Source: an uncultured Candidatus Saccharibacteria bacterium
Lineage (GTDB): Bacteria; Patescibacteriota; Minisyncoccia; Phycocordibacterales; JACOZG01
Assembly (NCBI GenBank): GCA_965230925.1
Contig: OZ246403.1
Coordinates: forward strand, 68,360-132,359
DNA: 64,000 nt
Direction: 5' to 3'
Below the pieces are notes generated by a model. That model was given only the letters and a program-made list of their open reading frames with translations, had not been told where the DNA came from and did not search any database. Both the position numbers and the translations under genes were made by a program. Below are positions 6,531-62,446 of this stretch, one piece after another (position 1 is the stretch's first letter; each line of letters opens with the position of its first letter).

Positions 6531-6630
6531 CACAAATTGGTTGACTATAAATAATTCAGAGCTAAAATAAGGTCTGCATTAGTAAGCGCCATTGAGGCGC
6601 TAGGTGGTCAGATGATCACCAGACCAAATG

Positions 6631-6712
6631 GAAACTCCGCACCCCGGCTTCTCCCACCGTCTTTTAATGACCACGAGAACTCGACGTGCGGAGTTCTTTG
6701 TTTTTATTTTTC
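6631..6712 (+). promoter_or_regulatory. Long hairpin plus T-tract, 25 nt upstream of gap; either a terminator or attenuator-like element or a small-RNA 3' end
   Basis: aactccgcac at 6633-6642 pairs with gtgcggagtt at 6686-6695 around a 43-nt loop, followed by ctttgtttttattttt. Confidence 0.4.
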
Positions 6713-6736
6713 CTTTACCTTGTTAGAATATAGACA

Positions 6737-9551: not shown

Positions 9552-10433
9552 ATGCACTTCATCATGCCCCATCTTCACGACGAGAAAATTAAGTTTTTGG
9601 AACAAAAGGCGAATGATATTCGTCGCTCGATCATTGAGATGCTGGTGGCTGCAGGTTCTGGTCACACGGCGGGGCCCTTGGGTATGGCCGATATTTTCAC
9701 CGCGCTCTATTTTCATCTTTTAAATCACGATCCTAAGCGACCAAATTGGGACGATCGCGACAGAGTGATTCTCTCTAATGGTCACATTTGCCCCGTGCTC
9801 TACGCCACGATGGCGCATGCCGGGTACTTCCCTGTGGAAGAACTCAAGACATTGCGCCGCTTCGGTTCTCGGCTCCAGGGTCATCCTCATCGTGAGTGGT
9901 TGCCCGCGCTTGAGACCAGTTCTGGTCCGCTTGGTTCTGGCCTTTCGCAAGCGGTGGGCATGGCGCTCGCTGAGCGTATCGATCGCGGCCGCGCTTCAGA
10001 TAAATTTTTCTATTGTCTCATGAGCGACGGCGAGTTCGATGCTGGGAATACTTGGGAGGGGATCTTGCTCGCGGGTAAAGAATCACTACACAATCTCATT
10101 GCGATCGTTGATCGCAATAATATTCAGATCGACGGCTTTACCGAGGACATCATGCCGCTTGAGCCGTTTAAGGCCAAGCTCGAGGCCTTCAACTGGCAGG
10201 TGCTCGAGATCGATGGTCACAACTTCGAGCAAATTAGTGATGCTGTCGGCCGAGCGAAGGCAGTGTTTAATAATCCCTCGATCATCATCGCTAACACCAT
10301 TCCCGGCAAAGGTGTGGCTGAATTTGAGCGCAAAGTTGAGTGGCACGGCAAACCACCAAATAAAGACGAAGCCAAAAACGCTTTGCATGAACTAAGGACG
10401 CTTTGGGGAAAGGTAAAGAGTGAGCATGAGTAA
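9552..10433 (+). CDS. tkt: Transketolase, N-terminal subunit (split transketolase)
   Basis: TPP-binding N-terminal motifs (GSGHTAGPLGMADI...SNGHICPVLYA), 293 aa with no C-terminal half. Confidence 0.9.
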   Translation: MHFIMPHLHDEKIKFLEQKANDIRRSIIEMLVAAGSGHTAGPLGMADIFTALYFHLLNHDPKRPNWDDRDRVILSNGHICPVLYATMAHAGYFPVEELKTLRRFGSRLQGHPHREWLPALETSSGPLGSGLSQAVGMALAERIDRGRASDKFFYCLMSDGEFDAGNTWEGILLAGKESLHNLIAIVDRNNIQIDGFTEDIMPLEPFKAKLEAFNWQVLEIDGHNFEQISDAVGRAKAVFNNPSIIIANTIPGKGVAEFERKVEWHGKPPNKDEAKNALHELRTLWGKVKSEHE

Positions 10434-10677
10434 AAACCACATAATTATTAGTTGTATCTATTTAGCTGTCCTGTTAATGTTTTTCCTTCGCTCCACTCTT
10501 GAAAAAGCTGTCCCAGTTTCTATAATATTTTTGATCTTTTCTTTGGTTCTCATACTCAAAAAACGATTTCCTTATACAGCTTTTTCCTTAATAGTTTTTA
10601 TAATCTCTGTTTTACACGTAATTTTGTTCCCGCTACTTGCGGTGCTTATCATTTTTTCTGGTGGACCTGCGTTATAA
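10420..10677 (+). CDS. Small three-TM membrane protein, paralog 1 of 5
   Basis: 85 aa, three hydrophobic helices, and a KKRFPY loop between TM2 and TM3. AT-rich codons. It overlaps the tkt N-subunit stop by 14 nt. Confidence 0.5.
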   Translation: MSMSKNHIIISCIYLAVLLMFFLRSTLEKAVPVSIIFLIFSLVLILKKRFPYTAFSLIVFIISVLHVILFPLLAVLIIFSGGPAL

Positions 10678-10722
10678 TTGTACTTATAGTGATTAACTCA
10701 AACCAACAAGTGGCCACAATCG

Positions 10723-11064
10723 GTGCGGTTTATAAAAATCTACATGAGTAGCTCTAAACTAAAAAAGTTTTTTCACTTTACTAACACCAGAATGTCTTTG
10801 GCTATCTTGATTTTTGTTATCGGACTCATTTTGTTGTTAGGTTTATTGCCGCAAGCACTAAACGATCACGGCGGAGCAACAACCTCTTTGGGAGGCTTGT
10901 TTCTGGCTATTATTTTCTGGCCAGGAGCCGTTTTTATGAGTCTTGGTCAGGTTTTGTCCTTAGGTTTTATCTTTGCCCCTATAGCTTTTGTAGCCAGCGT
11001 TCTGTATTTTTACGCGTTGTCTTGTGTTTTCTGTAATCTTGTTTCTTATATAAAAAATAAATAA
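10723..11064 (+). CDS. Small three-TM membrane protein, paralog 2 of 5 (start uncertain; internal ATGs at 10744 and 10789)
   Basis: 113-aa ORF with three hydrophobic segments, in an AT-rich region. Confidence 0.45.
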   Translation: MRFIKIYMSSSKLKKFFHFTNTRMSLAILIFVIGLILLLGLLPQALNDHGGATTSLGGLFLAIIFWPGAVFMSLGQVLSLGFIFAPIAFVASVLYFYALSCVFCNLVSYIKNK

Positions 11065-11066
11065 TC

Positions 11067-11354
11067 ATGAGTAAGTTTCTTAAATTCGTCGAACTGTTAT
11101 CGGTTTCTTATTTTGCAATCTCAGCCCCAATACTCTTTTTGAGCTTGCGGCCAACGTTTTTCGATATTCTTTTTCCTAAGGTGATGTTGATTGGTGGTCC
11201 AATAAGTTTAATGATGACCCCCCCATTGATAATTTATTTTCAAAAACCACCCAAAATAAGGTGGCCCGCCGGATTTTCTCTAGCAACCGCTTCTATTATT
11301 AGTCTTTGCTTCTTGTTTTTCTTGGCGCTCCTTTGGTCGGTAGATTTAATTTAA
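11067..11354 (+). CDS. Small three-TM membrane protein, paralog 3 of 5
   Basis: 95 aa, MSKFLKF N-terminus, QKPPKIRWP loop between TM2 and TM3. Confidence 0.5.
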   Translation: MSKFLKFVELLSVSYFAISAPILFLSLRPTFFDILFPKVMLIGGPISLMMTPPLIIYFQKPPKIRWPAGFSLATASIISLCFLFFLALLWSVDLI

Positions 11355-11406
11355 AAAGTTAATCTCAGTCAGTAGTTTCAACTTCGTGATATCATTTTAA
11401 ACGAGC

Positions 11407-11697
11407 ATGAGTAAACTTAAGAAAATAAATTGGTGGATTAGTTTAGGTTTTCTTGTCGTGCTTGTTTCTTCGTTTCTGATTCCATATATTTTTCCTCTCG
11501 ATCTTTTGCCTTATCTGCTTGGCGTACTCCCATTCATTTGGATTCTATCTATTATTGATTTAATAAAACCACCAAGGTCTAAACTAGTAATTTTGGTAAT
11601 GATTTTAGCTGTAGTATTTTACCTTGTTCACGATACTCTATTTCATTGCGGCCTGTCCTGGGGAAAATTATTCGAAGAGGGTAAAATCTGCATTTAG
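11407..11697 (+). CDS. Small three-TM membrane protein, paralog 4 of 5
   Basis: 96 aa, MSKLKKI N-terminus, IKPPRSK loop between TM2 and TM3. Confidence 0.5.
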   Translation: MSKLKKINWWISLGFLVVLVSSFLIPYIFPLDLLPYLLGVLPFIWILSIIDLIKPPRSKLVILVMILAVVFYLVHDTLFHCGLSWGKLFEEGKICI

Positions 11698-11750
11698 AAG
11701 TTAACCCCAGGCGGTGAATTTTATTTTTTTGGTTGTGTTAAAATTTATAC

Positions 11751-12023
11751 ATGGTATTTATCGCGGTTTTATATTTGATTGGCTCTCTCGTAACCATCTT
11801 TAATTTTATTTCCGTACCACTTTTGGACCTTTCCTTTCCTAATGTAGTGGTAGCGCTAGTGGTTGGTTCGATTACTTTTACTGCTTCACCACTATTGCTC
11901 ATTGGAAGTCTAATCTCAATTTTCTACCTCAAGAAGAGGTCGCCATTATTTTTTGTTGTTATGGCAGTATCGCTTGTGATGTCGCTATTTTACATTTATT
12001 CTTTTTTGCGTCCGACATATTAA
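11751..12023 (+). CDS. Small three-TM membrane protein, paralog 5 of 5
   Basis: 90 aa, LKKRSP loop between TM2 and TM3. It ends 1 nt before the tkt C-subunit start. Confidence 0.5.
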   Translation: MVFIAVLYLIGSLVTIFNFISVPLLDLSFPNVVVALVVGSITFTASPLLLIGSLISIFYLKKRSPLFFVVMAVSLVMSLFYIYSFLRPTY

Positions 12024-20499: not shown

Positions 20500-21636
20500 G
20501 TGCTAAATTTTAAAATTGAGAAAAAAGGCCTGCCTGCCGGTAGGCAGGGCCAGGGCCTTGCGCGTGCCGGCATAATCGAAACACCACACGGGGTAATAGA
20601 AACTCCAGCTTTTATTCCCGTCGCGACCAAGGCGACAGTGAAGTCGCTCACGCCCGAGATGGTTAATAATCTCGGCGCCCAAGCCGTGCTTGCGAACACT
20701 TATCATCTCTATTTAGAACCAGGCGATGAGCTGGTGAAGAAAGCTGGCGGCTTGGGAAAATTTATGAATTGGCAAAAACCGACCTTCACCGACTCGGGCG
20801 GCTTCCAGGTGTTCTCACTTGGGGCGAAGACCAATAAATTTGGCGAGATTAAGAGTGAAGATCGGGCACCACTCGCTAAAATTGATGATGACGGCGTGAC
20901 TTTCCGCTCACACTTGGATGGCAGTGAACATCGCTTTACGCCCGAGAAGTCGATTGAGATTCAATACAATATTGGGGCGGATATTATTTTTGCCTTCGAT
21001 GAATGTCCTCCTGGAGATTCTGATCATGTGTATCAAACTAAGGCGATGGAGAGAACGCATGCTTGGGCCAAACGATCACTCGTGAGGCACCAAGAACTTG
21101 GTGGGGAGCAAGCTTTGTTGGGAATTGTCCAAGGTGGACGCTTCGATGACCTCCGCGAAGAGAGTGCCAAGGTGATTGGTAAAATGGCTTTCGACGGTTT
21201 TGGCATCGGCGGCACCTTCGATAAACGCGACATCGAGCTAACGATTGCGAAAGTAAATCAAATTTTGCCAGAAGATAAACCGAGACACTTGCTCGGTATT
21301 GGCGAGCCAGAAGACTTTATCGCTGGCGCACTCGCTGGTTGCGACACCTTCGACTGCGTTCTTTCCACCCGCTTAGCGCGCCACGGCACTTTGCAAACTG
21401 CGTCTGGAAAACTTAATTTATTAAATGCCCAATATCGTGAAGATTTTTCACCCATCGAACACGGCTGTGCTTGTTACACTTGCCAACACCACACTCGCGC
21501 CTACTTAGCGCACCTTTTCCGGGCTCAAGAAATTTTGGCCGCCACCCTCGCTTCTATCCACAATCTCTATTTCTCAGTGAGTTTTGTAAAAAAGTTAAGG
21601 GAAAAGATATTAACAGGAAAACAGTTGACAGGATAG
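20500..21636 (+). CDS. tgt: Queuine tRNA-ribosyltransferase
   Basis: TPAFIPVATKATVK..DSGGFQVFSL, and C-terminal zinc site CACYTCQHHTRAYLAHL. Confidence 0.9.
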   Translation: MLNFKIEKKGLPAGRQGQGLARAGIIETPHGVIETPAFIPVATKATVKSLTPEMVNNLGAQAVLANTYHLYLEPGDELVKKAGGLGKFMNWQKPTFTDSGGFQVFSLGAKTNKFGEIKSEDRAPLAKIDDDGVTFRSHLDGSEHRFTPEKSIEIQYNIGADIIFAFDECPPGDSDHVYQTKAMERTHAWAKRSLVRHQELGGEQALLGIVQGGRFDDLREESAKVIGKMAFDGFGIGGTFDKRDIELTIAKVNQILPEDKPRHLLGIGEPEDFIAGALAGCDTFDCVLSTRLARHGTLQTASGKLNLLNAQYREDFSPIEHGCACYTCQHHTRAYLAHLFRAQEILAATLASIHNLYFSVSFVKKLREKILTGKQLTG

Positions 21637-21841
21637 TCTTGCTTGGTAGTATTAAATGGTCCAAGACAACTCCACGCCAGGAAGCGTCTCGGGACAAGTT
21701 CGGGAAGCCTGTCCGGTAGTTATCTCCGAAAACCAAACTCGCAACCACCTATAACGTCATGAAGTTTCTCAACGGCACACTGCCGGACAGGCAACCCATT
21801 TGATCTTTGGCTAGACCGTCCCTTGTGGACCACACTCTAAA

Positions 21842-21881
21842 AGACCCCACCTGTCTTCCAGGCTTCGGGGTCTAATTTTTT
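21842..21881 (+). terminator. Hairpin plus T-run that abuts the rsmE start codon
   Basis: agacccc at 21842-21848 pairs with ggggtct at 21867-21873, followed by aatttttt, then the ATG at 21882. Confidence 0.5.
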
Positions 21882-42717: not shown

Positions 42718-42756
42718 AACTCCCGCCTTTCCTAAACATTTTGATCGTCACCATGA

Positions 42757-42800
42757 CGACCTCTGCCGGAGAATTATACAGATTTATGACTTCTTGTCAA
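42757..42800 (-). promoter_or_regulatory. Consensus sigma70 promoter on the minus strand (TTGACA, 16-nt spacer, TATAAT), inside a 44-bp repeat (copy 1)
   Basis: Plus-strand tgtcaa at 42795-42800 and attata at 42773-42778. The segment cgacctctgccggagaattatacagatttatgacttcttgtcaa recurs at 43359-43402 with 2 mismatches. Confidence 0.65.
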
Positions 42801-42812
42801 CCTAGATATGAA

Positions 42813-42846
42813 AAACCGGCCGAGAGTTTCGGCCGGTTTTTGGGAA
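42813..42846 (-). terminator. Bidirectional hairpin terminator
   Basis: aaaaaccggccga gagt ttcggccggttttt. Confidence 0.65.
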
Positions 42847-42877
42847 CTTGTGGGAGGGTGAAGAACAGGAAGGTGTC

Positions 42878-43330
42878 TCACTCGGCGAACAAGCTGAGGC
42901 ACTTTCCACGGGGTAGCGAGGCGCTGGCCTGCCAACCACCAATGTTGAGTCTGAAAAAAACAGGATCTCCTACGTCCCCGTCGATCGTCAGTTCCGCCTT
43001 CTCCACCAGAACAAAAGACAGGGCCTGCTTTAATCGAGACACTGGATCAAACCCGGTACCGCCCAGATCGTTTACTGAACGGAGAAAGAGGTTTAGATCG
43101 ACGGTTACATCTCTTGGTACGATAGCGAGCTCGAGCTGTCTATCGAAGAGAATTGTGGGATATGGTTCGTCCCCGAATGGGTCCTGCTCATCATCAAAAA
43201 TTAATTCGACTCTCCATTGTCCCCGCACATAATCGGGAAAAATTGAGCAGAAGAGATCTTTCACCAACGTAACCCCAGACGGTTTGATTGTCTTTATCCT
43301 TCCCCAGCCATTAGTGTCCTCAATGTGCAT
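42878..43330 (-). CDS. Hypothetical protein of 150 aa
   Basis: RBS AAGGAGGTG. Promoter in repeat copy 2. Confidence 0.5.
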   Translation of the reverse strand: MHIEDTNGWGRIKTIKPSGVTLVKDLFCSIFPDYVRGQWRVELIFDDEQDPFGDEPYPTILFDRQLELAIVPRDVTVDLNLFLRSVNDLGGTGFDPVSRLKQALSFVLVEKAELTIDGDVGDPVFFRLNIGGWQASASLPRGKCLSLFAE

Positions 43331-43402: not shown

Positions 43403-43459
43403 GTTCTTGTCAAGCAAATGATTTTTTCTTAGGTTCTGCTAAACTTCTGTAAATTAGAC

Positions 43460-50055: not shown

Positions 50056-50286
50056 ATGGCAAACCACAAGGCCTTGAGTTTAGACCTGCAACAAAAGGTC
50101 CAACTACTCCCAAAAGACTGTCTCGAAGCCCTAAGGCTCTTCACTACAATGATTGAGGGTCAGTTGCTACCGGAAGACGGCAAGGTGTTTACTCAACACC
50201 TCGCCCAATGCAAGAGGGGCTGCCACCGAACGTTCAGGATAATCAACGGTCACATCAACCTGGTTATTAAGGGGAATGAATCATGA
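50056..50286 (+). CDS. Hypothetical protein of 76 aa
   Basis: AAGGAG 7 nt upstream of the ATG at 50056. Confidence 0.35.
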   Translation: MANHKALSLDLQQKVQLLPKDCLEALRLFTTMIEGQLLPEDGKVFTQHLAQCKRGCHRTFRIINGHINLVIKGNES

Positions 50287-50718: not shown

Positions 50719-50757
50719 ACGCACGACTTTAACCGGTCGTGCGTCTTCTTTTTTTAT
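50719..50757 (+). terminator. Rho-independent terminator
   Basis: 9-bp stem (acgcacgac / gtcgtgcgt) followed by cttcttttttttatt. Confidence 0.7.
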
Positions 50758-51524
50758 TCTAACCACAAGAGGCCAAACATCAGAAGGATACCGAGAACGA
50801 GAGCGAGAAATTGGGCGAGTGAGCGGCGAGGGTCAGTAGTTTTATGAAGCTCAGGAACAAGATCAGAGCCAGCAATGTAGAGAAAGCCGCCAGCAGTGAA
50901 GGCGAGGAGAACGGGGATTAGACCTTCAATTTTTGAACTTAGGAGCAAGGCAAGAATTGTGCCAATAATGGCAAGAGCGGCCGAGAGTAAGTTAAAAAGC
51001 AAAGCCTTTTTCTTAGTAAATCCAGCGTGCAAGAGAATGCCGAAGTCGCCGATTTCTTGCGGGATCTCATGGAGAATCACGGCAAGAGTGGTGGCAAAAC
51101 CGAGCGCCGGCGAAGCAAGAAAACTAATCCCAATAATCACCCCGTCGATGAAATTATGGAGCCCATCAGAAATTAAATTAAGATGACCCACCGGATGCAC
51201 CTGCGCGTGATGATCACTCTCTTCGACTGAAACATCAATCGCGTGATGATGGTGCCAATGAAGAAATTTCTCGAGAATAAAGAAAACCAAAATCCCAGCG
51301 AGGATAGCAACAGAAAGGGTAGTGGGATTCATTGCCTCTTCGAAGATCTCCGGCAAGAGGTGTAGAGCGACGTCGCCAAAAAGCGCTCCAGCTGCCAGAG
51401 CCACCAAGAGAAAAACTGCCTTTTTCAGCCGTTCGGCATTGATGGCGAGGGTGAAGGCTCCAACGAGCGAAGCGAGGCTAACCGCAACCACGCTCGCAAT
51501 AGCATAGAGATAAATAGTAATCAT
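50754..51524 (-). CDS. ZIP family metal (zinc) transporter
   Basis: HEIPQEIGDFGILLHAG and His-rich loops. 256 aa. Confidence 0.9.
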   Translation of the reverse strand: MITIYLYAIASVVAVSLASLVGAFTLAINAERLKKAVFLLVALAAGALFGDVALHLLPEIFEEAMNPTTLSVAILAGILVFFILEKFLHWHHHHAIDVSVEESDHHAQVHPVGHLNLISDGLHNFIDGVIIGISFLASPALGFATTLAVILHEIPQEIGDFGILLHAGFTKKKALLFNLLSAALAIIGTILALLLSSKIEGLIPVLLAFTAGGFLYIAGSDLVPELHKTTDPRRSLAQFLALVLGILLMFGLLWLE

Positions 51525-51602
51525 AAATTAATTTGTATACCTAAAATGTGGCTCAACCACAACGTTAAAAACTACTTACAGCCTATCACATCCTCATAAC
51601 GC

Positions 51603-51630
51603 TTGACAAGTTTTACACTTCGTGTAGAGT
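51603..51630 (+). promoter_or_regulatory. Sigma70-like promoter (TTGACA, 16-nt spacer, TAGAGT) reading into a GC-rich locus with no ORF
   Basis: ttgaca at 51603-51608 and tagagt at 51625-51630. Confidence 0.45.
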
Positions 51631-51639
51631 ATTGGGCGT

Positions 51640-52180
51640 GGAAGCTGGTTCGTTAGGGATTAGAACAAAGATTCTATTCCCGCCAGCAGGGTCCACTTAG
51701 TACATTTTATTCAGGAGAAACAGTCATGGACAGATCACCCAGCAGGACGCGTGGGCGTCCGGAAACCACCCAATTTTCTCGCTTTAGCAAGAAGAATGTC
51801 CAGATCCGCAGCACGCACAAGTTCTCGCGATTCACTCGCGACTGATCGACGCGCGACGGCGCACACATAGCCGCCCATCTCAATAGGGCATGGAAAACGA
51901 GATCGGCGGCAAAAGCGGCGAAGAGGGAAGAAGCAGGTGCTAGGGGAAAAGAAGCTGAGCGAGATGGCGCAGGCCGTCGCTGTAGCAACTGGTCGCCGCG
52001 ACAGAGACGACGACCAGAACCCAAGAAAGGAGTAATGACTCATGACGAGGTCAGGAAGACCGCCTCCGAAATAAATTCGCTGCTCGAGCCAAAAAAGGTC
52101 CCCTCCTTTTACGCGCAGCGATCGAACCAAGGCCGGTAGAAGTACACGCAAACACGTACTTTCACCGGCCTTTCATTTTA
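51640..52180 (+). ncRNA. Candidate noncoding or small-peptide transcript: GC-rich, bounded by a promoter and a hairpin/T-tract, with no ORF of 60 aa or more on + and only implausible ones on -
   Basis: Only tiny ORFs, for example a 39-aa ORF at 51726-51845 with an AGGAGA RBS. Hairpin ggccggt...accggcc at 52130-52166 followed by tttcattttat. Confidence 0.3.
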
Positions 52181-52207
52181 TCTAAATCTTGTGCTAAGTT
52201 AATTTTA

Positions 52208-53311
52208 ATGATGAAAAACAAAGGCTTGTCTCGCCAAAGTGGAACGAAGGCGGAGCGGGTGGTAGTGGCCATGTCGGGCGGGGTGGATAGCTCGGTGGCG
52301 GCAGTGCTCTTAAAAAAAGAGGGCTATGAGGTCGTGGGTGCGTTTATAAAAGTATGGGAGGCTCCTAAAGAATGGGCTGGAGTTACCGGTGTGTGTAATT
52401 GGCGCGAAGAACGGCGTTGGGCTATGCGCGCGGCAGCCAAACTCGAGATTCCGCTCATCACATTCGATCTGAGTGAAGAATATAAAAAGGGGGTGGTGGA
52501 TTATATGGTAAGCGAATATCGCGCCGGTCGGACGCCGAACCCGGACGTAATGTGTAATAAAGAAATTAAGTTCGGGGCCTTCTGGCGTGCAGCGGAGAAA
52601 AAACTGAAAGCAGATTTTATTGCGACCGGACACTATGCAATTACTAAAGACGGCAAACTCCACAAAGCGAAAGATAAAACTAAAGAGCAGAGTTACTTCT
52701 TGTGGGCAATCGAACCAGAACTGCTCCCGAAAATCATGTTCCCGATTGGTAATTTGAAGAAAACAGAGGTGAGAAAACTCGCGAAGAAATTTGATTTACC
52801 CAATGACGTGAAGCCAGACAGTCAAGGCCTCTGTTTCATTGGTAAAGTTGATTTTAAAGACTTTTTGAAAAATTTTATTACAGAAAAACCAGGAAAAGCG
52901 CTCAATGATAAAGGAGAAACGATTGGCGAGCACCCGGGGGCACTCTTCTTTACCCTCGGCGAGCGCCATGGCTTCACGATCACGAAACAATCGCCGAGTG
53001 AGGCGCGTCACTATGTGATTGCAAAGGATTTGGCAAAAAACACTATTACTGTTTCTAACAAAAAGCAGGCTAAGTCGCATGACTTGAAAACACTTACGCT
53101 TATCCACACCAACTGGCTAATTACTCCAAAACCAAACAAGATTTATAAAGCCCAAATTCGCTATCATGGCACTGAATATCCTTGCCAATTAGAACAAAAT
53201 GGTGATGTCTGGCAAGCAATTTTTACCAAATCGCCGGACTTCGCTACGCCAGGCCAATCGCTTGTTCTCTATGACAAAAAAGTTTGCCTGGGTGGCGGCG
53301 TGATTGCGTAA
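52208..53311 (+). CDS. mnmA: tRNA-specific 2-thiouridylase MnmA
   Basis: PP-loop SGGVDSS and GRTPNPDVMCNKEIKFGAF. Confidence 0.9.
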   Translation: MMKNKGLSRQSGTKAERVVVAMSGGVDSSVAAVLLKKEGYEVVGAFIKVWEAPKEWAGVTGVCNWREERRWAMRAAAKLEIPLITFDLSEEYKKGVVDYMVSEYRAGRTPNPDVMCNKEIKFGAFWRAAEKKLKADFIATGHYAITKDGKLHKAKDKTKEQSYFLWAIEPELLPKIMFPIGNLKKTEVRKLAKKFDLPNDVKPDSQGLCFIGKVDFKDFLKNFITEKPGKALNDKGETIGEHPGALFFTLGERHGFTITKQSPSEARHYVIAKDLAKNTITVSNKKQAKSHDLKTLTLIHTNWLITPKPNKIYKAQIRYHGTEYPCQLEQNGDVWQAIFTKSPDFATPGQSLVLYDKKVCLGGGVIA

Positions 53312-53880: not shown

Positions 53881-55548
53881 ATGGTAGAATCGCCAAATAT
53901 GAGTTCGGCCGAGATTCGCGAACAATTTCTTAAATTCTTCGAAGCGCGCGGGCACAAAATTGTTCCCTCGTCTTCCTTAGTGCCCGAGAATGATCCGTCG
54001 GTGCTCCTAACTTCAGCCGGAATGCAACAGTTTAAGCCCTATTTCACCGGCGCGGCTAATGCCGAACAAGATTTCGGTTCCAAAAACACTTGTTCGGTCC
54101 AAAAATGTTTTCGGACTTCAGATATTGAAGAAGTGGGGGATGAGCGTCACTTAACTTTCTTCGAGATGCTCGGGAATTTTTCTTTCGGCGGCTATTTTAA
54201 AGAAGGCGCAATCCAACTCGCGCATGAATTTATTACAAAGGAGCTTAATTTGCCAATTTCTTACGTCACAATTTTTAAAGGGTCGAACGAAGTGCCAAAG
54301 GATGAGGAGTCCCGCGCAATTTGGCAAAAGCTCGGCGTGCAAGATGTCCGCGAAGAAGGAATGGAAGATGTTTTCTGGGGTCCAACGGGAACTGAAGGCC
54401 CCTGTGGACCAACAACGGAAATTTATTGTAAGAACGCGGCTGGGCAAGATATTGAAGTCTGGAATCTAGTTTTTAATCAATTTTATTATCCCGGGACGCG
54501 AGAAGAACTACTGGCTGGTGCGCCGGGTAAAAACTTGCGCCCACTTGAAACCCCCGGTGTAGACACCGGCATGGGACTTGAGCGCTTGGTGATGATTGCC
54601 CAAAAAACACCCACAATCTTTGAAACTGATTTGTTCAAACCATTAATCGAAATTACGGACAAAAACTTATCAGAAACCAAAAAGAGAATACTTGCTGATC
54701 ACGCGCGCGCTATTAGCCACCTCATCACCGATGGAGTGCGCCCAAACAACAAAGGTGCGGGCTATATTTTGCGACGACTAATTCGGCGAATGATTAGTTT
54801 CGGTCAAAGCACTAATTTACAAAACTTACTTGCCCTAGTAACAGAAAACCCGGTGGTAATTGATGAGTTTAATAAAGAGAAAGAAACTTTTACCAAAGCG
54901 ATGGAAAGCGGCAAGCGAGAACTTGAAAAAATAAGTGACCTTGGCGCCGCCCAAGCCTTCCAACTCTACGAAACATACGGCTTACCCTTCGAATTAATTC
55001 AAGAAAAGTCCCCGTCATTGAAAAAAGCTGATTTTGAGGCGGAATTTAAGAAACATCAGGAGGTGTCGCGTGCGGGATTAGAGAAGAAGTTTGCTGGTGG
55101 CTTGGCTGATCATGAACCGGCCACGATTAAACTCCACACTGCGCACCATTTACTCTTAGCCGCACTAAAACAGGTGCTCGGGCCAGAAGTGAAGCAAAAG
55201 GGGAGTAATATTACCCAAGAACGCTTGCGGCTTGATTTCTCTTGGCCAGAAAAGATGACGGATGAACAGAAAAAACAAGTGGAAGAAATCGTGAACGAAA
55301 AAATTAAAGCAGCTTTGCCCGTGGAAAGGCGAGAAATGCCGAAAGTTGAAGCCGAAAAACTAGGCGCCGAGATGGAATTTGGCGCAAAGTATGGCGAAAC
55401 AGTTTCTGTTTATCTAATAGGAGATTTTAGTAAGGAATTCTGCGGCGGGCCTCATGTCTCTAACACTAGCGAACTTGGCACTTTCAAAATTCTGAAAGAA
55501 GAAGCCGTGGCAGCCGGCGTGCGGCGCATAAAAGCAGTTGTGATATAA
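53881..55548 (+). CDS. alaS: Alanyl-tRNA synthetase, short form (catalytic plus editing domains; C-Ala domain absent)
   Basis: N-terminal class II AlaRS motifs and an editing-domain HxxxH (HTAHHLLLAAL). Only 555 aa. Confidence 0.9.
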   Translation: MVESPNMSSAEIREQFLKFFEARGHKIVPSSSLVPENDPSVLLTSAGMQQFKPYFTGAANAEQDFGSKNTCSVQKCFRTSDIEEVGDERHLTFFEMLGNFSFGGYFKEGAIQLAHEFITKELNLPISYVTIFKGSNEVPKDEESRAIWQKLGVQDVREEGMEDVFWGPTGTEGPCGPTTEIYCKNAAGQDIEVWNLVFNQFYYPGTREELLAGAPGKNLRPLETPGVDTGMGLERLVMIAQKTPTIFETDLFKPLIEITDKNLSETKKRILADHARAISHLITDGVRPNNKGAGYILRRLIRRMISFGQSTNLQNLLALVTENPVVIDEFNKEKETFTKAMESGKRELEKISDLGAAQAFQLYETYGLPFELIQEKSPSLKKADFEAEFKKHQEVSRAGLEKKFAGGLADHEPATIKLHTAHHLLLAALKQVLGPEVKQKGSNITQERLRLDFSWPEKMTDEQKKQVEEIVNEKIKAALPVERREMPKVEAEKLGAEMEFGAKYGETVSVYLIGDFSKEFCGGPHVSNTSELGTFKILKEEAVAAGVRRIKAVVI

Positions 55549-62067: not shown

Positions 62068-62095
62068 TTGACAGGAAAATTGATTCATGTATACT
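62068..62095 (+). promoter_or_regulatory. Near-consensus sigma70 promoter (TTGACA, 16-nt spacer, TATACT)
   Basis: ttgaca at 62068-62073 and tatact at 62090-62095. Confidence 0.55.
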
Positions 62096-62099
62096 ATCG

Positions 62100-62433
62100 G
62101 GCAGATGTTGACCACCACGCGATGGTCACGAACCAGCCGGTAAGCTTGATTAAATGGTTCACTTACTAGACTGATGAGAGTAGTGCACAGGTAACTGTGC
62201 CCTCGAACCTGATCCCGGGACTGCAGGGAGGGATGCTCGCCATGAGTCTAACTTGGCAAAATCCTCGAGACGGTCGAGGGCATGATGGAAGGATGCGGAA
62301 ACCACGGGGCGCCGCTAAGATCTCCACCATGACACAACGCACCAACCCTGAACCAAATAGTTCTTCGAACTAGATCAAGGGGTTTTGTAACCCACAACAC
62401 CGCTGGAGCAATTTTGCCCAGCGGTTTCTCTTT
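62100..62433 (+). ncRNA. Candidate noncoding RNA of about 330 nt, bounded by a promoter and a terminator; identity unresolved
   Basis: No ORF over 46 aa. Internal hairpins (gtgcacag gtaact gtgccc; ctcgagacggtcgagg). Terminator ccgctgg..ccagcgg followed by tttctcttt at 62400-62433. Confidence 0.4.
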
Positions 62434-62446
62434 GCTAAAAATTGAA

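Follow-up and report, generated by a model that had tools for sequence, protein, structure and literature searches.

A putative orphan transcription unit upstream of mnmA in a gene-dense Patescibacteria genome

We report that the 64-kb window analysed here (the whole stretch of DNA under study) probably holds a real and independent plus-strand transcription unit, recognised from its sequence features, in the gap between the gene of a ZIP transporter and mnmA. The window belongs to a Parcubacteria-like member of the Patescibacteria (candidate phyla radiation); it is densely coding, with almost all genes on the plus strand, and its MnmA has its best named matches among proteins of Pacebacteria, Vogelbacteria and Parcubacteria. 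The gap (51525-52207, 683 bp) is the largest stretch of the window without an open reading frame (ORF) once a minus-strand ORF, discussed below, is set aside, the runner-up measuring 497 bp. The unit probably represents either a lineage-specific RNA of recent origin or an orphan gene that is dead, and not a conserved new class of RNA; tentatively, we favour a young orphan RNA that acts as RNA and possibly also delivers a basic peptide of 39 amino acids.

The left end of the unit is marked by a sigma-70-type promoter that had been proposed in an earlier reading of this DNA made without database searches (hereafter the sequence-only reading), and our promoter scan confirms it at 10 of 12 matching positions. 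Transcription from it would start near position 51637. Sites with at least 10 of 12 matches number only 19 on both strands of the 64-kb window, and about two-thirds of them fall in intergenic DNA, which makes up less than 10% of it; such sites therefore seem to behave as real promoters in this organism. Both hexamers, a spacer within the 16-18 nt range and an intergenic position are what a putative sigma-70-type promoter should display, and 51603-51630 displays all three. An extended form, CTTGACA(A/G)-N15-TAnAnT-..GGGC, is common to this promoter, to that of a minus-strand gene led by a Shine-Dalgarno sequence (promoter at 43413) and to that of another unit at 62068.

At the right end, the long imperfect hairpin with a T-tract that had been described just before mnmA is borne out. 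Its arms (52129-52145 and 52156-52172) are 88% complementary and are followed by TTTCATTTTAT, and the hairpin has a folding energy of -25 kcal/mol (z = -6.1). This GC-rich stem-loop with its U-rich tract corresponds to the definition of a Rho-independent terminator, as which we predict it to function. It ranks 12th among the plus-strand hairpin-plus-T candidates of the window, and many of the strong sites of this kind in the genome lie at gene ends or in intergenic gaps. A simple terminator scan overlooked the hairpin because that scan accepts loops of at most 8 nt, and the loop here has 10. Since no T-run lies 3' of the hairpin on the minus strand, it would terminate plus-strand transcripts only. 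The nearest upstream plus-strand gene has its own terminator (50719-50744), and no other gene on that strand needs the one at 52129-52180.

Promoter and terminator thus share a strand and follow each other in the right order, and both types of motif are concentrated in intergenic DNA, which makes a real unit likely; that a promoter with 10/12 matches and a terminator of -25 kcal/mol should bracket the block by chance is jointly unlikely. The tight packing of the genome also argues against inert DNA persisting at this place. The unit would moreover be independent of mnmA, because mnmA has its own promoter downstream of the terminator, an extended -10 box of the leaderless-mRNA kind that the sequence-only reading had overlooked. 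AATCTTGTGCTA is conserved before mnmA in L003, one of 93 fetched loci (L002, L003, L004, L086, L091 and L093 are the labels of the relatives named here), and a -10-like box a few nucleotides before the start codon is a common pattern in this genome. The mRNA of mnmA is accordingly placed, from sequence, as a leaderless transcript that starts at this promoter, 3' of the unit's terminator. The coordinates of all features of the locus are collected in Table 1.

Table 1. Features of the putative transcription unit and its surroundings (positions in the window).
Feature	Position	Strand	Remarks
Predicted primary transcript, about 545 nt	51637-52180	+	Predicted from promoter and terminator
Sigma-70-type promoter (putative), TTGACA-16 nt-TAGAGT	51603-51630 (-35, 51603-51608; -10, 51625-51630)	+	Promoter scan, 10/12 matches
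5'-proximal stem-loop, GUGGA/UCCAC, GCUGG/CCAGC, GGGA-UUAGAA...UUCUA-UCCC	51638-51696	+	Folding
AGGAG (51713-51717), 8-nt spacer and 39-codon ORF (51726-51845) ending in TGA	51713-51845	+	Product would be MDRSPSRTRGRPETTQFSRFSKKNVQIRSTHKFSRFTRD
Continuation of the same frame, 97 stop-free codons past the TGA at 51843-51845	51846-52139	+	Ends at TAG 52137-52139 in the terminator stem
Rho-independent terminator (predicted), 16-bp interrupted stem, 10-nt loop, tail UUUCAUUUUAU	52129-52180	+	Folding, scan
mnmA promoter (putative), extended -10 TGC-TAAGTT, 7 nt, ATG 52208	52192-52210	+	Outside the unit, its right boundary
138-amino-acid ORF, TTG start	51735-52151	-	Judged spurious
ZIP transporter gene	50754-51524	-	Pfam Zip, E = 1.5e-50
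mnmA	52208-53311	+	Right-hand neighbour of the unit

Most genes of the window are without a Shine-Dalgarno sequence, and many first genes have a TATAAT-like box that ends 5-10 nt before the start (for example 6737, 25422, 30202, 32067, 36812, 47239, 52208, 55557 and 62485); the closeness of this box to the start codons implies that leaderless mRNAs are widespread. A minority, mostly small hypothetical genes, have a 5' untranslated region (5' UTR) and a strong Shine-Dalgarno sequence (6022, 8994, 34528, 50056 and, on the minus strand, 43330). Near-identical AT-rich decamers abut the starts of the divergent genes that flank the unit, at 51525-51534 for the ZIP gene (AAATTAATTT) and at 52196-52205 for mnmA (AAGTTAATTT).

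The raised GC content that had drawn attention to about 500 bp of the locus is present, at 0.54-0.61 over 51700-52100 (200-nt windows) versus a window mean of 0.481. Profiling of GC and k-mer composition, suggested at the same time, places the 500-nt window at 51801 at rank 8 of 636, about 2 standard deviations above the mean, a value similar to those reached by ordinary genes, and finds the trinucleotide signature of the locus ordinary (rank about 100-180 of 636). The true extreme of the locus is its strand asymmetry, the T content of the plus strand being the lowest in the window. Foreign DNA was considered and rejected, given the native trinucleotide signature, the absence of similarity to plasmids or phages and three exact-pattern scans of viral contigs that came back empty; of the proposal that the locus is the decayed remnant of acquired DNA, the acquired part finds no support in the k-mer composition. 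A mobile element, whether a miniature inverted-repeat transposable element or the remnant of an insertion sequence, was rejected as well, given that the locus has neither terminal repeats nor a target-site duplication and that no second copy was found in the window or in any of the loci. Direct and tandem repeats were looked for in the unit and none was found, the only repeats being internal hairpins.

If the unit is expressed as we propose, its RNA would begin near 51637 under the control of the sigma-70-type promoter and open with a stable hairpin, followed by AGGAG, 8 nt, an ATG and the 39-codon basic ORF; it would then continue as a purine-rich, T-poor and GC-rich body and end at the strong terminator, which would shield the leaderless mnmA promoter directly downstream. 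The product would act, if at all, as RNA, and the 39-amino-acid peptide may be made in addition, as in dual-function RNAs. In our judgement the unit does not belong to a conserved family of structured RNAs, and it is neither a leader of mnmA nor a minus-strand gene. On the first point, the Rfam/Infernal comparison that the sequence-only reading had suggested matched no family: a cmscan of 51400-52400 at E <= 10 returned only a chance snoR25 match beyond the end of the unit (52203-52248, with 20.7 bits where the threshold is 50), a scan of the whole window at gathering thresholds found tRNAs only, and ARAGORN reported no tRNA or tmRNA at the locus. The families covered (Rfam 15) included OLE, GOLLD, ROOL, HEARO, raiA, RNase P, tmRNA, 6S, SRP, group I and II introns, T-box, metal riboswitches and RNAIII, and a known RNA family was rejected for the unit on these results.

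In folding, the body of the RNA is little better than ordinary DNA of this genome. The segment 51631-52190 folds better than shuffled sequences on both strands (z about -5.6), and the 5'-proximal stem-loop reaches -24.6 kcal/mol (z = -2.8), a stability equalled by 2 of 200 shuffles. The unit RNA is predicted to be a chain of short hairpins, with no evidence of an ornate fold, and its sub-domains have z from -1.0 to -2.8. A number of observations weigh against an orphan RNA. The genome background is z = -1.2 +/- 2.1 and the whole unit is matched by 2 of 30 random windows, while the body of the unit without its terminator has z = -3.2 against that background; with only 14% U, the RNA has a limited capacity for A-U pairing, and 545 nt is long for a trans-acting small RNA. 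No homologue of the unit sequence was found, which leaves the reading without support from covariation or conservation: it was sought in the 93 fetched loci, in plasmids and phages and by the three exact-pattern viral scans, and at the syntenic site the unit is missing in L002 and L086, which have VIT1 there, and in L004, where the gap is 16 bp. Lastly, the gene-like layout (Shine-Dalgarno sequence, ATG and a frame that runs to a stop in the terminator) fits a dead or truncated gene equally well. Complementarity of the unit to possible targets was sought within the window, and none was found. The non-coding RNA option of the sequence-only reading survives here as the orphan RNA that we favour, tempered by the Rfam result and by a body z of only -3.2.

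The gene-like 5' end is the best argument that the unit RNA is, or once was, an mRNA. Its design (hairpin, AGGAG, 8 nt, ATG) matches that of a real gene of 150 amino acids on the minus strand, 43330-42878, which is led by a Shine-Dalgarno sequence and whose 5'-UTR hairpin is placed like the stem-loop at 51638-51696. The basic 39-amino-acid ORF with its ribosome-binding site had been pointed out before and is present as stated; with this site and a start codon, the ORF at 51726 has the signals expected of a candidate small ORF. Its coding score is -0.11 per codon, frame 0 is not the best-scoring one, and the peptide sequence is absent from the protein collection searched. What had been overlooked is that the frame runs on beyond the single TGA to a TAG inside the terminator. 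The two ATGs preceded by a Shine-Dalgarno-like sequence, at 51726 and 52035, share this one frame.

This arrangement could be explained by a nonsense-truncated orphan gene, an explanation that we consider doubtful but take seriously: a gene for a basic, disordered protein of 138 codons, with its own promoter, 5'-UTR hairpin, Shine-Dalgarno sequence, ATG at 51726 and stop at 52137-52139 in the terminator, would have acquired a TGA at codon 40 (for example by change of CGA to TGA), and what remains would be a pseudogene or, at most, a 39-amino-acid product with a 330-nt 3' tail. The layout is indeed gene-like, with a Shine-Dalgarno-led frame that is open to the terminator but for one TGA and with both of the ATGs in it, and the genome also contains Shine-Dalgarno-led genes whose promoter and 5' UTR are designed in the same way; the corresponding slot of L091 carries a small protein gene of this type. 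Yet a frame with at most one stop is expected from composition with P = 0.16 at the position of the 51726 frame (dinucleotide-preserving shuffles) and in 43% of cases in some plus-strand frame, and the near-openness of the frame follows from the T-poor plus strand. Codon-usage scores for all six frames range from -30 to +1.5 versus +47 +/- 15 for windows of the same size in real genes, GC is flat over the codon positions with no three-base periodicity, and frame 0 is not the best for any candidate ORF at the locus, whereas it is the best for most real small genes used in the comparison. Arg makes up 17% and Leu 2% of the read-through translation, with hydrophobic or aromatic residues at about 15%, and AlphaFold gives it two isolated helices only, with a predicted template modelling score (pTM) of 0.26. 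Homologues are likewise missing, both for the 137-residue read-through translation in a word-indexed search of 5.8 billion protein clusters and for its C-terminal 97 amino acids in a full HMMER scan of 1.84 billion representative proteins, and comparison of the plus-strand frames with Pfam, NCBIfam and PHROGs gave nothing significant. A few hypothetical genes of small size in the same genome have coding scores close to zero too, however (for example 50056-50286 at -0.002), so the coding statistics weaken an orphan gene without excluding it.

At 42741-43330, where the Shine-Dalgarno-led gene of 150 amino acids lies, the longest ORF is a plus-strand one (42741-43232, 163 amino acids, low-complexity) that is probably spurious. 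Upstream of the overlapping minus-strand ORF, 43330-42878, lie a perfect TTGACA-16-TATAAT promoter (43413-43386) and a 5'-UTR hairpin; the ORF is led by AGGAGG, 6 nt and ATG and has no Pfam match.

Comparison with relatives, another of the checks that had been suggested, shows that none of the closest relatives found has the unit, which by the sequence-only reading's own reckoning leans away from a conserved non-coding RNA. In L002 and L086 (MnmA 73% identical to that of the window) the order is ZIP gene and VIT1, both on the minus strand, then 30-60 bp and mnmA; in L004 (65%) the minus-strand ZIP gene is followed by 16 bp and mnmA; in L093 (about 59%) YceG abuts mnmA; and in L091 (about 61%) a slot of 365 bp contains a promoter, a 65-amino-acid ORF led by a Shine-Dalgarno sequence, and a terminator. 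L003 (74%) has VIT1 on the minus strand, TTGACA-16-CATAGT, about 175 nt, a perfect terminator, an insert of 183 bp and mnmA, and the promoter-to-terminator stretch, which holds no ORF of more than 17 amino acids, has the place and orientation of the unit in the window. As the relatives carry different cargo here or none, the site upstream of mnmA appears to be a variable slot that collects small self-contained units. The only other copies of the unit that we found are in contigs of the same organism that are 100% identical, and no recurrent element was seen upstream of mnmA in 80 distant loci. Closer relatives were sought in three ways: the best MnmA match in a scan of GTDB was 57% among the matches listed, a clade-specific DNA pattern run on metagenomes returned only L086 and two unrelated contexts, and an exact look-up of IF-1 returned only the identical contigs of the same organism.

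Homology between the unit of the window and that of L003 was considered and rejected, as significant similarity is confined to the mnmA promoter segment TCTNAATCTTGTGCTA and does not extend to the promoters, bodies and hairpins; the two units have the ordered blocks AAGAAAGGAG, UAAUG and ACCGCCU in common, which is statistically unconvincing. In L003 itself (332-544), the mnmA promoter is present as a perfect 15-nt direct repeat, CAATCTTGTGCTAGT, on either side of the 183-bp segment, which contains three CCATCTCTGGCAAGG-like repeats and resembles a small insertion with a target-site duplication.

The shifting content of the slot, together with the absence of the locus from all relatives, is also what would be expected of inert DNA left by a rearrangement that removed or replaced VIT1, the promoter and terminator being fortuitous or only insulating the promoters of the ZIP gene and mnmA. 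We consider this improbable. The body of the unit has neither a coding signal nor exceptional RNA structure, and surveys of GC-rich intergenic DNA have yielded mostly regions without clear function (PMC11109978), both of which suit inert DNA; but this is the largest ORF-free stretch in the window of a packed genome, promoter (10/12) and terminator (-25 kcal/mol) bracket it on one strand, its k-mer composition is native and no remnant of VIT1 is detectable in it. A VIT1 (PF01988) pseudogene was rejected specifically: tblastn and Pfam gave no match, and a frameshift-tolerant alignment stayed at the null level (score 38 versus 34.5 +/- 4.7, with 12 of 60 shuffles scoring as high), where a positive control of 24 residues scored 109.

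The remaining explanations assign the region to one of its neighbours or to a protein. It is quite remote that the locus is the long minus-strand 5' leader of the ZIP gene, whose partner VIT1 has been lost, with the plus-strand promoter providing convergent antisense modulation. We looked for a promoter next to the ZIP start and found no convincing one, the best being TTGTGG-17-TATACA, and there are two 9/12 sites on the minus strand farther away, TTAACT-16-TAAAAT (52202-52175) and TGGACA-18-GAAAAT (51802-51773). A weak minus-strand hairpin with a T-run lies just before the ZIP gene (51561-51547), folding is equally good for the two strands (z = -5.6 on the minus strand), and in L002 the ZIP gene is the second of an operon whose promoter adjoins mnmA. 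The minus-strand matches reach only 9/12, however, and their number (3 in 2 kb) is close to the 1.8 expected by chance; a T-run is missing after the large hairpin on that strand, no metal riboswitch or other leader family was matched in Rfam, and a leader of 240-650 nt would be unusual in a genome with many leaderless mRNAs. Still less probable is a cis-regulatory leader or attenuator of mnmA, in which transcription from 51603 would run into mnmA unless stopped at the hairpin: the orientation is the same and the terminator lies 28 nt before the ATG of mnmA, but mnmA has its own extended -10 box 7 nt before that ATG, conserved in L003, the relatives L002, L004 and L086 have no such leader (gap 16-60 bp), and neither antiterminator pairing nor a known leader family nor recurrence in the 80 loci was found.

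We give hardly any credence to a live recoded gene in which the in-frame UGA is read as selenocysteine or read through. There is a single UGA in an otherwise open frame, with a hairpin (CCGCCCAUCUC...GAGAUCGGCGG) downstream of it, and in bacterial selenocysteine insertion sequences (SECIS) the apical loop lies 16-37 nt downstream of the UGA; here, however, 28 nt separate the UGA from the hairpin, whose loop is about 39-55 nt away, outside that range. UGA is moreover an ordinary stop in 10 of 42 long genes, no selenocysteine tRNA was found in the window, and homologues and coding signal are missing. A real protein-coding gene in the 138-amino-acid minus-strand ORF, which had been doubted from the start, has next to nothing in its favour beyond an uninterrupted frame with a TTG start: the ORF has a negative coding score and would read through the terminator hairpin, no homologue was found at E <= 10 among 5.8 billion protein clusters and no match in Pfam, NCBIfam or PHROGs, its AlphaFold mean predicted local distance difference test (pLDDT) is 41, and gene callers left it uncalled on all three independent contigs that carry it. 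The frame is in exact antisense codon register with the 51726 frame of the plus strand and is open because the minus strand is A-poor, the chance that some minus-strand frame is stop-free being P = 0.07.

Elsewhere in the window, grpE is directly preceded by another promoter-to-terminator unit without an ORF (62068-62435, about 330 nt). It has a TTGACA-16-TATACT promoter and a terminator hairpin CCGCTGG...CCAGCGG followed by a T-run, and a CUGAUGAG...CGAA stretch in it loosely recalls a hammerhead core; it has no Rfam match at E <= 10 and a body z of -1.7. Two strong plus-strand promoters, at 6541-6736 (TTGACT-16-TAAAAT) and 21625-21881 (TTGACA-16-TAGTAT), are 169 and 230 nt away from the next start and would give long leaders in a genome that is mostly leaderless; neither has an Rfam match at gathering thresholds. 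The most deviant trinucleotide composition of the window is that of a low-GC island at about 10300-12020 (0.34-0.37 versus 0.48), which contains five consecutive small plus-strand ORFs of 85-113 amino acids with no Pfam matches and may be acquired DNA. The alaS ORF (53881-55548), with tRNA-synt_2c and tRNA_SAD domains, encodes 555 amino acids (602 in L091, 5064-6872) and is followed by an ORF of 378 amino acids without a Pfam match; bacterial alanyl-tRNA synthetases typically have about 870 amino acids, far more than the alaS ORF here.

To our knowledge, almost nothing is known of RNA-based regulation in the tiny, gene-dense genomes of Patescibacteria. A transcribed and functional unit would be among the very few candidate regulatory RNAs described in this group, and would mean that an accessory slot next to a core tRNA-modification gene is evolving fast. 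A dead orphan gene or leftover DNA would reflect ordinary genome flux, and it should be borne in mind that a promoter, a terminator and raised GC alone do not make a non-coding RNA. This caution agrees with the outcome of a survey of GC-rich intergenic regions, in which, after unannotated ORFs had been set aside, 'unnamed' and low-ranking candidates far outnumbered the named RNA candidates (PMC11109978). Like those candidates, the unit is long, has a GC content above the genome mean, belongs to no ORF or RNA family and has fewer than five representatives (PMC11109978); in the scheme of that survey it would be filed as 'unnamed' or low-ranking. Both of these classes are defined by having no consensus model, whereas the unit lacks even a second representative, and its GC excess is modest (about 2 standard deviations in a genome of 48% GC).

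Two further comparisons bear on how the unit could work. There is a slim chance, argued by analogy, that it makes a regulatory RNA of about 545 nt, restricted to its lineage and resembling RNAIII or SR1 in build, with a 5' hairpin, a translated basic peptide of 39 amino acids and a long hairpin-rich tail; the genome may contain several such ORF-free promoter-to-terminator units, this being one of them and that at 62068-62435 a second. RNAIII of Staphylococcus aureus, of about 514 nt, encodes the 26-amino-acid delta-haemolysin, and SR1 of Bacillus subtilis encodes the 39-amino-acid SR1P. The unit resembles them as a stand-alone element of about 0.5 kb with a short Shine-Dalgarno-led ORF about 90 nt from its 5' end and a long hairpin-rich tail; it differs in having no match in sequence or structure to RNAIII or any other Rfam family and no complementarity to a target in the window, in coming from an unrelated phylum and in being known from sequence alone. 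The orphan genes led by a Shine-Dalgarno sequence (43330-42878, of 150 amino acids, and the 65-amino-acid ORF of L091) have the same form of promoter, 5'-UTR hairpin, Shine-Dalgarno-ATG arrangement and terminator as the unit, but their ORFs are intact, ordinary in composition and best in frame 0, whereas the frame of the unit is broken at codon 40 and its composition is unlike that of a normal protein. The unit belongs to no known family, and would be at worst a dead orphan gene and at best a new bacterial orphan RNA gene with a single representative.

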